A DNA stretch of 64,000 nucleotides from the IMG/VR virus record IMGVR_UViG_2718218136_000001; one strand, written 5' to 3'. This DNA is from a virus (lineage: Duplodnaviria; Heunggongvirae; Uroviricota; Caudoviricetes). The position numbers were made by a program, and so were the translations under genes. The notes beneath the pieces are model-generated. The model did no database searches. It saw only the letters and a program-made list of their open reading frames with translations, and was not told the DNA's origin. Shown here piece by piece: positions 32,283-38,062 of the stretch. The number at the start of each line of letters is the position of its first letter. Within the stretch, counting starts at the first letter, position 1.

Positions 32283-32299
32283 AAATTATTAGTGCAATT
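32283..32299 (-). promoter_or_regulatory. C1 operator-like site in the divergent promoter region
   Basis: Reverse complement attgcactaataatttt. Confidence 0.45.
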
Positions 32300-32355
32300 T
32301 TGATTGTGAAATGTATCATTCTGCCCTTAAGTAGGTTCTTCACGAGGAAACAAAA

Positions 32356-32601
32356 TTGGCAGAACGTGTTGATGATGCAGAGCTGAGCATGAATCAGTTA
32401 GAAGCTCTCAAAGACATGGCCATCGATAACATCAGAAAGCAGGCACAGGTCGTGAGCCAGGTATTTACAGGGAAGTGTCGTTACTGCAATGAATCGATTG
32501 AATCAGGCATTTATTGTGACGCTGAATGTGCGCAATGGCACAGGGAAGAGCAGGCCGCAAAACAGCGTAAATATGGCATGCGACCGGCAGGATTTGACTG
32601 A
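32356..32601 (+). CDS. TraR/DksA-family C4 zinc-finger protein
   Basis: 81 aa with CRYCNESIE...YCDAECAQW four-Cys arrangement. Confidence 0.5.
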   Translation: MAERVDDAELSMNQLEALKDMAIDNIRKQAQVVSQVFTGKCRYCNESIESGIYCDAECAQWHREEQAAKQRKYGMRPAGFD

Positions 32602-32603
32602 TT

Positions 32604-33182
32604 ATGTTGCGCTTTACTGAGGAAGAGTTTCAGGCTTTTAGTGAGCGTCGAAATAAGGGGCGGTCCAGGCCAAAAACCAAAAAGGATCCATTCTTATCGC
32701 TTGCGCCGGTAAAAGAAGTTTCTCCACATGCGAAGGCACTTGCAGCACTGGCAAAGAACCCAGACCTGCGCGACGGAAATTGCGAGCACTTCGAGCAGGT
32801 TTTCATTTTTGATTACTTCGAACGCAAGCACCCTGACATCTATGAGCTGTTGCATGCAACGCCTAACGGAGGGAAGCGTTCAAAAGCAACCGCCGGGAAA
32901 ATGAAGGCTGAAGGGCAGAAAAAAGGTTATCCGGACATGAGTCTCGATAAAGCATGCGGTATTTATCACGGCATGCGAATTGAGCTTAAAGAACCAAATG
33001 GTAAAGCCCCGACGAAAGAGCAGATCGCCTGGATGCGCAGGCTTAGAGAGGAAGGCTACTACGTTGTTCTTGCGTATGGTGCAGAACAAGCGATTACCGC
33101 CATCCTGGAATACATAAGTCTTAAAAAGGGTGAGGCTATTGAGCATGTATTGAACGGCGATAAGTGGTTGCATGCTGCTTAA
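32604..33182 (+). CDS. VRR-NUC domain nuclease
   Basis: GYPDMSLDKACGIYHGMRIELKEPNG fits the PD-(D/E)xK VRR-NUC core. Confidence 0.55.
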   Translation: MLRFTEEEFQAFSERRNKGRSRPKTKKDPFLSLAPVKEVSPHAKALAALAKNPDLRDGNCEHFEQVFIFDYFERKHPDIYELLHATPNGGKRSKATAGKMKAEGQKKGYPDMSLDKACGIYHGMRIELKEPNGKAPTKEQIAWMRRLREEGYYVVLAYGAEQAITAILEYISLKKGEAIEHVLNGDKWLHAA

Positions 33183-33378
33183 AATAATAAATTAATTAGT
33201 GCATATGTGTTCTTTGATACAGCGCACATTAACATCGGGAGAATAATCGTGTCATCCAAGGCTAATTATGAATCGCTGGCATCGATCATGCCGCGTAATG
33301 AACAGGAAGCAGATGCTGTCGTGGACCCGGTAATCGCTGAAATGAATGCTCGCCTGGAGGCTGAATTTGCAGCTGAGA

Positions 33379-35206: not shown

Positions 35207-36204
35207 AGATTGCTTTAGTTTTTCGCTCTGGTGGTGACTATAACGCTTCCGATGTGCAGTGGCTGGTTAATCAACTGCCAAAAGGCTATGAAATTATTTG
35301 CCTGACAGACCTGAAGCGTTTACATGTACCTGGCGTCAAAGTTGTCCCATTGATCAACCAGTGGCAAAAGTGCCGTGGCTGGTGGGCGAAAATCGAGTTG
35401 TTCCGACCGGATATAACCGATGATCTGTTCTATCTGGATTTGGACACGGTTATTGCCGGTGATATACGCCCAATCCTAGAGCATCCACCAACCAGCTTCA
35501 CCATGCTTAGGGATTTTTACCATCCACAATATCGTGGCAGCGGTGCCCTGTGGATACCAAATAGTGTTAAAGCGCATATCTGGAGTTCATTCTGGCAAGA
35601 TCCGGAAGGTTGGATTTCTCGTTGTGTCACTACTGAGTGCTGGGGTGACCAGGGGTTCTTACGAAAGGTTATGGGCGATGATACACCAGCATTTCAGGAT
35701 CTGTATCCAGGATGGTTTGTAAGTTACAAGGCCGATGTTGTGGAACCTGGTTCAAAATATGCGAGCGCGCGTTACTCCAGGGGGAATGGGGCATTACCAA
35801 AAGACTGCCGAATAATCTTTTTCCACGGCAAACCGCGACCTCGCGAAGTGTCAGAGGATTGGCTTCCCCTTATCAGCTCATTTTTTGAGCGAGAATCAGA
35901 ATATTATTGCTCTAATAATTCCGTATTTTTAAAACGTGATGTACACTCATCACGTTTTTTATTAGAGCAATCTACAAGGTGCACTATGTGGCCATTCCGA
36001 CGGAAATATCACTACTGGCTGATCGCCTTTGTTACGCCGACCGGCGGTATCAGGCATGTCATCACCAGGTATCGCAACAAGAGACTCACCTTAGCCAGAA
36101 TTTTACAGGCTGCCATAGGTGAGGGACTGGATACAAATTGCGTAGTCCTTCCTCCTTCATACTTAGGAAAAATGACCGAAGCACAAGCTAATACGGAACT
36201 TTGA
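35203..36204 (+). CDS. hypothetical protein with DxD-like motif; 3' third may be a separate unit
   Basis: 333-aa continuous ORF; [11 protein letters not shown] resembles a glycosyltransferase DxD motif; a C1-operator pair and hairpin lie inside the ORF at 35906-35971. Confidence 0.4.
35906..35971. promoter_or_regulatory. inverted pair of C1 operators flanking a perfect hairpin with T-run
   Basis: attgctctaataattcc (35906-35922, +) and gattgctctaataaaaaa (35955-35971, -) flank aaaacgtgatgtacactcatcacgtttttt. Confidence 0.5.
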
Positions 36205-36205
36205 A

Positions 36206-37468
36206 ATGAGCACTTCAGCACAAAACCAATCAATCGAAAATGTATGTATCCCTGATGTCCTGAATGCCGGTATCCCGGCCATTATCCAGAACATCCGGGC
36301 CGCGCAACGCCGCGTTAGTTGTGATGACCTCACAGCACGTTTTTTTGATAATGCGGTTCAGTCAGCGGAGATGCTTCACGCACAGCTTATTGATGTTTAT
36401 AACGCAGAAGCTGATAGCCATAACTCCCTGGTAGATGCAGCTGAAAATATGCAGTTGGATCTCGGTCTGAAGGGTAAAGAAATTGAAGAGCTTCAGCTGG
36501 AAATTGAACATTTGAAACGCCAGCAACAGGACGCGATCGACGATGCGACGCATGACGCCAACCAGCGTGCTGATAATGCCGAACGTATAAGCATTGAGCT
36601 GGAAACAAAACTCAATGAAATGACCGCGATGGTTGAACTGCGGAACTCACAGATTTCAACGCTAAAATCTCAATATAAAGAGATCATGAAACTTGATCCT
36701 TTTAACCTTGAGAAACGCTATAACAAAGCTAAAAGCGAGCGACAGGAACTGCGTAAGCAGGTCGCCGACCTTAACCAACAGCTCAAAAAAACTATTAAAG
36801 ATGCAAGCGAGGCGCGCGTGGCATTTGCTAATAAAAAAGCAGAGGTTACCGCGCTGGTTAATGAGAATGCCAAATTTGCGACGCTCAAGAAGGAAATGTA
36901 TGGCATTACTGAGCGCCGTTTCCCTGCAAGCAAACTTCATCCGACGTTAGGGCAAATCTCCTTCTTCCCGCGCCTCCTGGCTTATGGGATCTCATCGCCT
37001 AAAGAGTTCAATAACGAGCGTCCTTATATCGTTTCTAAGCTGGACTTTGCTTATCAGTTCTGCTGCGACATGGGCTATGCCATTGATATCCGAATCAACG
37101 AATGGTTGATGCCAAACTTCCAGCCGTTGGCAATTTTCCGCGAGTTCCAGCCGGAAGGTTGGGTAGAGTTCTTCCATGAATTGATCTGTAAAGAGATGGA
37201 AAGCCGCCGCCCGGAATTGGTCCGTCGAGTTGAGTGGGCGCAAGAGGTTATGTTGGCAGATGCAGAGCTGCCGTTCGAACCGGAATTCATTGATGATCTG
37301 GCAACTAAAGGGTTGCATACCCTGTTTGATGTGGTTACCCGCCGTCATGAGCAGTTGGTTGTCGAATTGGGTTTAGAGGAAACTGCGGCAAGAAGACTTC
37401 TCGATGTTTGCTATGCACGTAGCGATGCATGGGAAAAAGAGAACGGCGGCACTATTTACGTTCGCTGA
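36206..37468 (+). CDS. coiled-coil protein
   Basis: 420 aa; residues about 90-240 are heptad-rich (EELQLEIEHLKRQQQ..., ELRKQVADLNQQLKK). Confidence 0.5.
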   Translation: MSTSAQNQSIENVCIPDVLNAGIPAIIQNIRAAQRRVSCDDLTARFFDNAVQSAEMLHAQLIDVYNAEADSHNSLVDAAENMQLDLGLKGKEIEELQLEIEHLKRQQQDAIDDATHDANQRADNAERISIELETKLNEMTAMVELRNSQISTLKSQYKEIMKLDPFNLEKRYNKAKSERQELRKQVADLNQQLKKTIKDASEARVAFANKKAEVTALVNENAKFATLKKEMYGITERRFPASKLHPTLGQISFFPRLLAYGISSPKEFNNERPYIVSKLDFAYQFCCDMGYAIDIRINEWLMPNFQPLAIFREFQPEGWVEFFHELICKEMESRRPELVRRVEWAQEVMLADAELPFEPEFIDDLATKGLHTLFDVVTRRHEQLVVELGLEETAARRLLDVCYARSDAWEKENGGTIYVR

Positions 37469-37540
37469 TAGTTACAGTGTCACTTTTAATGCTGGTGGAG
37501 TGCTCCCACCAGCATTTTTTTCGTCCAATGAGGAGGGCAT

Positions 37541-38047
37541 TTGAGTATTTTCAATAAACACGCACACCAGGAACGTCCGTACATCGTCATAGTAGATATT
37601 GATGGGACGATATCAGAGGCAACGGAAGACAGGCTGCATTTACTTCCACCACCTGGCAAAGGTGCATTAACAGAGCACTGGAACGAGTTTAACCTTGCCT
37701 GTGACACTGATGCTCCCATCACTCCAGTTATTGATATGGTGCGCCAGTTATTTAACGTTTACACGGTCTGGTTTGTAACCGGGCGCTGTGAGATCGCAAG
37801 GGATAAAACACGAGCCTGGCTGCGGAAGTACGTAACAAACGGTGCTGAGCCTTTGCTATCTATGCGTCCTGCCACCGATGACAGAAATGACGGCCCAGCA
37901 AAGATTGATCTCCTTAAGAAAATTGGTCTAAGTAAAATCGCGTTCGCACTGGAAGATAAGATTGAAGTGGCGCGTGTTTTCAGGAGTCACGGCGTACTTA
38001 CGTTAATGGTCAGGGAGTATGAAAACGCACTTCTTCATCAACAATAA
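37541..38047 (+). CDS. HAD-like phosphatase (DxDGT motif)
   Basis: N-terminal IVIVDIDGTISE is HAD motif I; size fits small nucleotidases or Pnk-phosphatase-like proteins. Confidence 0.45.
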   Translation: MSIFNKHAHQERPYIVIVDIDGTISEATEDRLHLLPPPGKGALTEHWNEFNLACDTDAPITPVIDMVRQLFNVYTVWFVTGRCEIARDKTRAWLRKYVTNGAEPLLSMRPATDDRNDGPAKIDLLKKIGLSKIAFALEDKIEVARVFRSHGVLTLMVREYENALLHQQ

Positions 38048-38062
38048 TTGCTCTAATAAATC
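38046..38062 (+). promoter_or_regulatory. C1 operator
   Basis: attgctctaataaatct overlapping the stop codon of the HAD-like gene. Confidence 0.55.

Follow-up and report, generated by a model that had tools for sequence, protein, structure and literature searches.

A run of ten plus-strand genes, pmgL, pmgM, pmgN, pmgO, pmgP, ppp, pmgQ, pmgR, pmgS and pap, lies at positions 32283-38062 of the stretch of viral DNA analyzed here (64,000 nucleotides; Caudoviricetes; IMG/VR record IMGVR_UViG_2718218136_000001), which is referred to below as the window, and the main subject of this report is a putative enzyme cassette formed by three of these genes, pmgO, pmgP and pmgQ. The order of the ten genes, taken from the deposited annotation and from the list of open reading frames (ORFs), is that of phage P1. 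When deposited phage genomes were searched by megablast, the segment matched positions 78529-84308 of the P1 record AF234172 with 100% coverage and 99.0% identity, and a base-by-base comparison showed that the two sequences are collinear and differ by 58 substitutions and no indels. It is near certain that the segment is the pmgL-to-pap region of a P1-type plasmid prophage, extending from the C1 operator Op82 to the C1 operator Op88. The ten genes, their order, five C1 operators and a late promoter are all as in the P1 reference (AF234172/NC_005856, P1_gp085-094; hdm/sht genes of P7). A preliminary description of the run, made from the sequence without database searches, had reported the genes and their bracketing by C1 operators, and both are borne out by the collinearity with P1 and by the five operators at P1 positions.

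As an object, the pmgL-pap segment is already known, being the Punavirus P1 reference region by every test made. An annotation of the region has existed since 2004, and knock-outs of its individual genes were published in 2022, and the object alone adds little. Eight of the ten P1 genes have, for twenty years, been labelled with a "putative morphogenetic function". Comparative evidence splits the P1 run into unrelated pieces and sets pmgO-pmgP-pmgQ apart as an enzyme cassette that is conserved, mobile and strongly constrained, and what is new here is a testable reading of these three genes as a portable protein- or envelope-glycosylation cassette.

The pmgO, pmgP and pmgQ products and their predicted folds

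The three genes are located as follows, with the predicted nature of each product:
33346-34008, plus strand: pmgO, MptE-like/Maf-like GxGPS enzyme, PHROG 4603
33906-34532, plus strand: pmgP, MptE-like/Maf-like GxGPS enzyme; most highly conserved gene in the cluster
35203-35904, plus strand: pmgQ, GT8-like retaining GT-A glycosyltransferase of 233 amino acids (aa)

Both PmgO and PmgP carry the motif VGSGPS and give weak matches to the MptE-like family (PF01973, formerly DUF115), with Pfam scores of 23.4 and 20.9 bits, respectively, against a cut-off of 34.6 bits; a fused homologue, P0051, scored 44.6 bits. The two proteins are distant paralogues, as judged from a BLASTP E value of 0.003 between them, from cross-matches of their PHROG profiles, and from invariant columns that the aligned families have in common. 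This is consistent with the preliminary description, which had recognized two paralogous GxGPS-motif proteins. Within the PmgP family, residue H173 does not vary. Compared with P1, the pmgO and pmgP genes of the window show one synonymous change each.

The annotated start of pmgO overlaps pmgN by 59 nucleotides. Because the homologues of PmgO are 176-205 aa in length and align from about residue 20, the real start of pmgO is probably the ATG at 33379. pmgO and pmgP overlap by 103 nucleotides, and an equally long overlap is found in Citrobacter phage phiNP (locus L003). A formal slippery heptamer, A_AAT_TTA, is present at 33921 within the overlap of the window. A programmed -1 frameshift that would produce a PmgO-PmgP fusion was considered and rejected, as the heptamer is missing from the loci L003, L005 and L006; it was further ruled out because pmgP has its own AGGAG-ATG and because a slip would remove the conserved C-terminal helix of PmgO.

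Structure prediction for the paralogous pair, profile annotation of each ORF and comparison with the corresponding P1 region had all been proposed in the preliminary description. The latter two were carried out and largely upheld its gene calls. From the paralogous pair, PmgP was modelled with AlphaFold; PmgQ was also modelled, and the two models were built separately, because MAFFT had placed the PmgO homologues onto the PmgP half of the P0051 fusion. The models had mean confidence scores (pLDDT) of 95.1 for PmgP and 94.7 for PmgQ. In Foldseek searches, the PmgP model had Maf on top, followed by sialyltransferases of the families GT42 and GT29, with identities of 18% or less, and among the models of BFVD it matched solely unnamed MptE-like phage proteins. 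The predicted fold of PmgP is of the Maf/sialyltransferase/WaaZ-like type. Two motifs of the family of PmgO and PmgP, GxGPS...AVNG at the N-terminus and G-x-D further on, are also present in WaaZ, the KdoIII transferase of family GT73, where Kdo is 3-deoxy-D-manno-octulosonic acid. PmgO and PmgP differ from the Maf flagellin glycosyltransferases in being single-domain proteins of about 200 aa, whereas the Maf proteins have about 630 aa, and they differ from Maf, GT42 (Cst-I/II) and WaaZ as a whole in that they appear as a diverged pair with low identity and with scores below the Pfam cut-off.

The Pfam result could be read in another way, namely that PmgO and PmgP use ATP as pyrophosphokinases or kinases like those of the MptE/thiamine-pyrophosphokinase type and would activate or phosphorylate a small molecule or sugar for PmgQ, since the MptE-like family is the sole Pfam family matched by either protein. 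The order of the Foldseek matches argues against this, and so does the N-terminal GxGPS...AVNG motif common to WaaZ, which is also present in Cst-type sialyltransferases. The genes are, moreover, constantly accompanied by enzymes that tailor glycans, such as GT8, another GT-A enzyme, a methyltransferase or a sulfotransferase. We regard a kinase function as improbable.

PmgQ was described in the preliminary description as a DxD-motif protein, and this holds, as the motif D79-L-D81 is invariant in 33 homologues, together with H208-G-x-P-x-P. When the PmgQ model was compared with the PDB, almost all of the top 50 Foldseek matches were GT8 enzymes (AgtA, glycogenin, GlyE, WbbM and LgtC), with TM-scores of about 0.55-0.6, and the PmgQ family profile matched the PDB sequences of AgtA (E 1.6e-6) and GlyE (E 2.5e-3). 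On the basis of the predicted fold and the motifs, PmgQ is a putative GT8-family glycosyltransferase. It appears to resemble the GT8 enzymes AgtA, glycogenin, GlyE, LgtC and WaaJ/WaaO in its GT-A fold, its DxD motif and its C-terminal His motif, and it differs from them in having only about 15% identity and no Pfam match, and in being shorter than the enzymes of the lipopolysaccharide (LPS) core. When seven proteins of the E. coli K-12 waa operon (among which WaaY is a kinase) were searched, the PmgP profile picked WaaZ alone and the PmgQ profile picked WaaJ and WaaO.

In the window the stop codon of pmgQ is lost. The codon at 35905-35907 is TAT where P1 has TAA, and the resulting ORF (35203-36204) crosses the operator Op86a, a hairpin and the operator Op86b into pmgR, so that a PmgQ-PmgR read-through ORF of 333 aa is formed that P1 does not have. 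This exact sequence was found in two public contigs, and the 2479 members of its cluster are mostly 233 aa in length. A real bifunctional PmgQ-PmgR protein was rejected as an explanation, as the ORF results from a single TAA-to-TAT change found in two contigs and is best seen as a quirk of the strain.

Linkage and distribution of the three genes

Contexts outside P1 were gathered from look-ups of the encoding contigs, from a scan of one genome per species, and from annotated phages. The scan of species representatives was used for diversity because all 80 loci that were returned from IMG/VR with the PmgP profile were P1-like, with 99-100% identity. The PmgP family itself comprises 697 clusters (50% clustering, E up to 1e-3). 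In all of the approximately 20 distinct non-P1 contexts the PmgP gene was accompanied by a PmgQ gene, and for 14 of them a PmgO gene was detected as well. Ppp, Pap, PmgL, PmgM, PmgR and PmgS accompany the three proteins in one context only, which is a diverged P1-like plasmid of Pantoea (L091), and phage D6 has kept ppp with no match to PmgP. We infer that the run is a mosaic and not one functional module, and that only pmgO-pmgP-pmgQ are linked outside P1-like plasmids. In the Pantoea plasmid, PmgP and PmgQ have identities of 72% and 68%, while the essential PmgR has 46%, and this better conservation of PmgP and PmgQ indicates a selection that laboratory plating does not show.

Natural gene fusions, verified with hidden Markov models (HMMs), confirm the functional link of the three genes. 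PmgO is fused to PmgP in P0051, PmgP to PmgQ in P0234 and P0302, and PmgQ to PmgP in P0314, and in P0283 (616 aa) PmgQ and PmgP are followed by an S-adenosylmethionine (SAM) methyltransferase. The cassette is variably joined by a fourth, GT-A-like protein, by a SAM methyltransferase or by a sulfotransferase. A PmgP domain is combined with a second, C-terminal domain in P0340 and P0361, and P0315 has a methyltransferase-like region at its N-terminus.

The contexts are usually positions within late or structural operons. In three prophages of the HK97 type (L005, L006 and L099) the cassette directly follows the major capsid gene and lies ahead of the connector genes. It is found directly after the large terminase gene in L100, between the lysis cassette and the terminase in L003, L004, L007 and L114, and between the antiterminator gene Q and the holin gene in L108. 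In the case of L114, an E. coli-type lambdoid prophage (European Nucleotide Archive ERZ28565595, positions 6510-8112, gene order O-P-Q), the PmgQ-like gene appears truncated to about 145-175 aa, and this may be a decaying copy of the cassette.

The least expected setting is that of Pseudescherichia, where the pmgO, pmgP and pmgQ homologues lie on both strands among five or six genes for intimin/invasin-type Big_1 proteins. Such islands occur in L093-L097, which represent five species representatives, and in L107 and L109, where the L107 contig is the same as the L095 contig. The island has no phage genes and is bounded by genes for a LysR regulator and an MscS channel. The L107 island (1236-17532) corresponds to GCA_031987975, DALZYX010000005 156761-175360, and the Big_1 proteins of this type of island have 331, 690, 1169, 781, 999 and 493 aa, several of them without an obvious signal peptide.

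The linkage data bear on the function that had been suggested previously, according to which the whole run could be a module for early host takeover or for DNA modification (anti-restriction). In favor of such a module, the genes are C1-controlled and would hence be expressed early, and they encode a nuclease, two phosphatases and glycosyltransferases, which are classes known from DNA hypermodification clusters. GT8/WaaJ-like phage GT-A enzymes can glycosylate DNA that contains 5-hydroxymethylcytosine (bioRxiv 10.1101/2023.12.21.572611). In L105 and in the jumbo phage XacN1, the cassette also has genes for DNA polymerase and ribonucleotide reductase in its vicinity. The genetic evidence does not agree with this reading. 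In-frame deletions of pmgL, pmgM, pmgN, pmgO, pmgP, ppp, pmgQ, pmgS and pap caused no plaquing defect, and plating of the same nine deletions on EcoK+, EcoA+ and EcoB+ hosts, representing three type I systems, was unchanged, while pmgR was essential and its deletion resulted in unjoined heads and tails, a morphogenetic defect (Gonzales et al. 2022, PMC9024508). A genome-wide study with CRISPR interference (PMC10695390) agrees with the deletions except that the knock-down of pmgN was scored "essential", which is at odds with the dispensable deletion and is probably a polar effect.

The protein searches point in the same direction as the deletions. Scans with Pfam, PHROG and NCBIfam detected no cytosine or thymidine hydroxymethylase, no TET-like oxygenase and no methyltransferase in the cluster, and a PADLOC scan of the run returned nothing but coiled-coil noise. 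We know of no report of a hypermodified base in P1 DNA, which is a standard substrate for cloning and transduction. A single module is further contradicted by the division of the run into four C1-controlled units (see below) and by the splitting up of the genes outside P1-like plasmids. Thus the functional part of the preliminary description is not supported, and we consider an early takeover or anti-restriction module to be very improbable. Its caveat that the function is not evident from sequence alone was correct. It had also named the assignment of all genes to characterised P1 functions as the outcome that would speak against its proposal; this was not found either, and eight of the ten genes are still without a known role.

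A candidate glycan-building cassette and its acceptor

Taken together, the predicted folds, the natural fusions and the tailoring-type partners suggest a small glycan-building unit. That the P1 identity of the segment, the mosaic nature of the run and the glycan-building function of the cassette all hold, with the nature of the acceptor set apart, appears to us somewhat better than an even chance. PmgO and PmgP would be two diverged copies of a fold of the Maf/GT42-sialyltransferase/WaaZ type. Known glycosyltransferases with this fold use ulosonic acids activated by cytidine monophosphate (CMP) as donors. PmgQ is predicted to be a retaining GT8 glycosyltransferase of the Mn-dependent type that uses a hexose activated by uridine diphosphate (UDP). 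The three proteins would most likely act jointly, and probably as a complex, in building a short glycan on one acceptor, and in the relatives the extra GT-A enzyme, SAM methyltransferase or sulfotransferase would tailor this glycan further. To our knowledge, CMP-Kdo is the sole CMP-activated sugar of E. coli K-12, and because of this Kdo may be the donor used by PmgO and PmgP in P1. Our guess for the P1 glycan is thus Kdo plus a hexose.

The acceptor may be a protein, that is, a virion protein in the phages and the Big_1-repeat surface proteins in Pseudescherichia, and we would place this a little short of an even chance. A protein acceptor is favored because of the association with the Big_1 genes, because of the late-operon positions, and because the best structural neighbors are protein-directed; the top neighbors Maf, AgtA, glycogenin and GlyE all act on proteins. 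As a leading guess, a protein of the virion is favored over the LPS core.

In the LPS alternative, PmgO-PmgP-PmgQ would remodel the core of the host LPS during lytic growth. A WaaZ-like addition of Kdo and a GT8-type addition of hexose would mask or truncate the outer-core glucose to which P1 adsorbs, and with the core altered in this way, superinfection would be limited and fewer progeny would be lost on cell debris. This possibility draws on the outcome of the search of the waa proteins described above, in which the only match to the PmgP profile was the KdoIII transferase and the matches to the PmgQ profile were GT8 outer-core glucosyltransferases. LgtC and WbbM are, moreover, among the structural matches of PmgQ, and a faint precomputed Pfam match on P0051 is to WaaZ_KDO_III. 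The host was a diderm in every case found. Temperate phages commonly alter LPS, and over-expression of waaZ reportedly truncates the outer core. On the other hand, the placement of the cassette inside the late operons of HK97-type and lambdoid phages would leave little time for a change of the surface, and the P1 cassette is repressed in the lysogen, the reverse of what applies to seroconversion genes. In the Pseudescherichia island the cassette is tied to surface proteins and not to waa or O-antigen genes. In addition, WaaJ (338 aa) has a C-terminal third that is missing from PmgQ (233 aa), and PmgQ best resembles soluble, protein-directed GT8 enzymes. An LPS target is therefore unlikely in our estimation, while being a serious competitor of the protein acceptor.

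Several observations weigh against a protein-glycosylation cassette, and some of them fit an LPS target equally well. The latter are the restriction of the cassette to diderm hosts among all hosts found, and the fact that the nearest E. coli relatives of PmgP and PmgQ are LPS-core enzymes. The scores of PmgO and PmgP lie under the Pfam cut-off of the MptE-like family, and PmgQ had no match in Pfam, including Glyco_transf_8, even at E values up to 10. In terms of context, the neighborhoods with DNA polymerase and ribonucleotide reductase genes in L105 and XacN1 are non-structural, and the settings of L103 and L115 are chromosomal. The Big_1 island proteins had no tblastn match in P1, in the window or in other phage loci that bear the cassette. 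The single deletions of pmgO, pmgP and pmgQ were without a plaque phenotype, and the main text of the same study, including its table of the virion proteome, names none of these proteins and no modification (PMC9024508). A glycan on P1 virions has not been reported in the published literature, and our literature searches found no described function for the O-P-Q cassette and no phage capsid glycosylation outside actinophages. The complete proposal is that diderms and their phages have a widespread and hitherto undescribed cytoplasmic protein-glycosylation cassette, with pmgO-pmgP-pmgQ as its representative in P1, and that this cassette would decorate virion proteins in phages, possibly with a Kdo-hexose glycan, and Big_1 adhesins in Pseudescherichia; with all of its parts, this proposal is doubtful.

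The closest comparison for a virion acceptor comes from mycobacteriophages, whose virions are reportedly glycosylated, with the C-termini of the capsid and tail-tube proteins as the proposed acceptors. In that system phage glycosyltransferases are expressed with the structural genes, and the likeness of the P1 cassette to it is hypothetical. The enzymes of the mycobacteriophages belong to other families and work in Gram-positive-type hosts. If a virion protein is indeed the acceptor, the cassette would be the first to glycosylate virions among phages with Gram-negative hosts, and P1 would become a tractable model of phage glycosylation in such hosts. Such a system would also bear on the immune recognition of therapeutic phages and on defense systems that sense capsids.

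Small proteins encoded beside the cassette (L006 6166-6555; L005 8843-9124) contain low-complexity Pro/Thr/Glu (PTE)n repeats or Ser/Thr-rich stretches, and the adjacent capsid proteins of L005, L006 and L099 end in short Ser/Thr/Gly tails. It is pure speculation that these small proteins and capsid tails are candidate acceptor sites.

Remaining genes, C1 operators and differences from P1

The other genes of the run are the following:
32356-32601, plus strand: pmgL, small Cys4 zinc-finger protein, DksA-like by PHROG; identical to P1
32604-33182, plus strand: pmgM, VRR-NUC (PD-(D/E)xK) nuclease of the Holliday-junction-resolvase type
33249-33404, plus strand: pmgN, protein of 51 aa, or of 65 aa if GTG 33207 is used as in P7 hdmA
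34514-35206, plus strand: ppp, lambda-type (NinI/PrpA-like) Ser/Thr metallophosphatase
35986-36204, plus strand: pmgR, essential, head completion; identical to P1
36206-37468, plus strand: pmgS, coiled-coil protein of 420 aa, PHROG 1660, dispensable
37541-38047, plus strand: pap, HAD phosphatase of the polynucleotide kinase-phosphatase (PNKP) type, TTG start

The calls that the preliminary description had made for these genes agree with the profile searches in nearly all cases. The VRR-NUC nuclease is PmgM, whose residues 77-180 match the solved VRR-NUC structure 4qbl (E 3.5e-17) and which also matches PHROG 5702, "Holliday junction resolvase" (E 4.8e-27); its Pfam VRR_NUC score of 21.3 bits is just under the cut-off of 23.8 bits, and its translation shows GYPD...IELK. 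The lambda-type Ser/Thr phosphatase is Ppp, which resembles lambda NinI/PPase (1g5b, E 1.5e-94), scores 59.3 bits with Pfam Metallophos, and has the motifs GDLHG, GDLIDRG and GNHE. The DxDGT HAD-like phosphatase is Pap, which passes the Pfam HAD_PNKP cut-off (45.3 bits against 27.6), matches PHROG 415, and carries motif I as DIDGT at residues 19-23. The long coiled-coil protein is PmgS, for which solely SMC/Rad50-type coiled-coil matches were obtained. The TraR/DksA zinc finger was supported in part: PmgL matches PHROG 54, "DksA-like zinc-finger", with an E value of 1.6e-12, but it had no match to the Pfam TraR/DksA model (zf-dskA_traR), and its cysteine spacing is CxxC-x9-CxxxC as compared to the canonical CxxC-x17-CxxC. 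The NCBIfam scan of the run gave nothing useful beyond Ppp.

We propose that pmgL, pmgM, ppp, pmgS and pap would represent separate accessory functions confined to P1-like plasmids, with pap encoding a putative 3'-phosphatase of the PNKP type. Pap resembles the HAD phosphatase domain of T4-type polynucleotide kinase-phosphatase and differs from that enzyme in being without the kinase domain; it also weakly matches Pnkp1 (4xrp, E 0.004). A related possibility, which is compatible with a glycan-building role of pmgO-pmgP-pmgQ, is that Ppp and Pap, and perhaps PmgM, heal nucleic-acid ends in response to defenses that cleave RNA or tRNA. Pap is a member of the HAD 3'-phosphatases of the PNKP type, the fold family of Ppp is that of the phosphoesterase domain of bacterial Pnkp, and Ppp weakly matches NCBIfam bacter_Pnkp (E 2e-10) and a PHROG RNA-ligase-fusion profile. 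However, Pfam and PHROG scans found no kinase or ligase partner in the cluster, and the P1 record gives Ppp 64% identity with the lambda protein phosphatase, which is a protein Ser/Thr/Tyr phosphatase. The ppp and pap deletions are without a phenotype on laboratory hosts, and no prrC-like gene is present in the adjacent hsd locus, for which reason a prrC-type anticodon nuclease in that locus was rejected as the rationale for Pap. An end-healing role is considered quite improbable, more so than the kinase reading of PmgO and PmgP.

The C1 operators of the window were scanned with the consensus ATTGCTCTAATAAATTT and up to 3 mismatches. The scan returned 18 sites, whereas 0.29 would be expected by chance, and four of these sites bracket or punctuate the run (32282-98, minus; 35906-22, plus; 35955-71, minus; 38047-63, plus). 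The regulatory features of the run are listed here:
32249-32267, plus strand: late promoter LPpmgL (Lpa-dependent), with a -22 box common with the divergent LP26; sequence identical to P1
32282-32298, minus strand: C1 operator Op82/O26, differing from the consensus by 2 mismatches, with annotations in both P1 and P7
33189-33205, minus strand: C1 operator Op83/Oppp, preceding pmgN-pmgO-pmgP-ppp-pmgQ, annotated in P1 and P7
35906-35971: inverted pair of C1 operators Op86a (35906-22, plus) and Op86b (35955-71, minus), flanking a hairpin at about 35932-35964 with A and T runs
within 35906-35971: predicted promoter PpmgR
37488-37516, plus strand: strong intrinsic-terminator-like hairpin between pmgS and pap, with an 11-bp stem (6 GC pairs) and a T run after it
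38047-38063, plus strand: C1 operator Op88/OpmgT, 1 mismatch, annotated in P1

Op83 has 4 mismatches and hence lies below the threshold of the scan, and it is present at the annotated P1/P7 position. LPpmgL was placed by transfer of the P1 annotation with an offset of +28782. The operators define four C1-controlled transcription units, which are silent in the lysogen and are turned on once C1 is inactivated. The first, at Op82, consists of pmgL-pmgM and also has the late promoter; the second, at Op83, is pmgN-pmgO-pmgP-ppp-pmgQ; the third, at Op86a/b, is pmgR-pmgS and ends at the terminator; and the fourth consists of pap, which is followed by Op88. The hairpin between pmgS and pap is not among the features listed in the P1 record, and its presence suggests that pap is expressed via read-through or from a signal of its own. 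The pattern of the 18 sites is that of a dispersed C1 regulon, as expected of a P1-type prophage. The C1-like sites elsewhere in the window include overlapping or paired ones at 22411-22438 and 52819-52918.

The flanks of the run are those given by the preliminary description, with a baseplate-like cluster upstream (tail/baseplate genes 26-25-7-24-6, minus strand) and hsdR downstream. In contrast to P1, the genes pmgT-pmgU-pmgV-upfM/N/O-hot-lxr-humD downstream of pap are replaced by an intact type I hsdRSM locus (38314-44346), which sits between pap and phd/doc:
38314-41430, minus strand: hsdR
41552-42787, minus strand: hsdS
42784-44346, minus strand: hsdM

The same hsdRSM arrangement is found in the phages vB_EcoM-673R5 and phi456, and in P1 itself only about 220 bp of the "downstream of hsdR" sequence are left. 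Op88 and predicted promoters, which drive pmgT in P1, aim in the window at the 3' end and terminator of hsdR (38120-38096, minus strand). Since Op88 faces the 3' end of hsdR, C1 derepression could give antisense transcription into hsdR.

The substitutions that distinguish the run from P1 are not evenly placed. Nine of the 58 fall within 24 bp (33205-33228), between Op83 and pmgN, where the window carries the P7 allele, and this cluster of differences looks like a small recombination patch.

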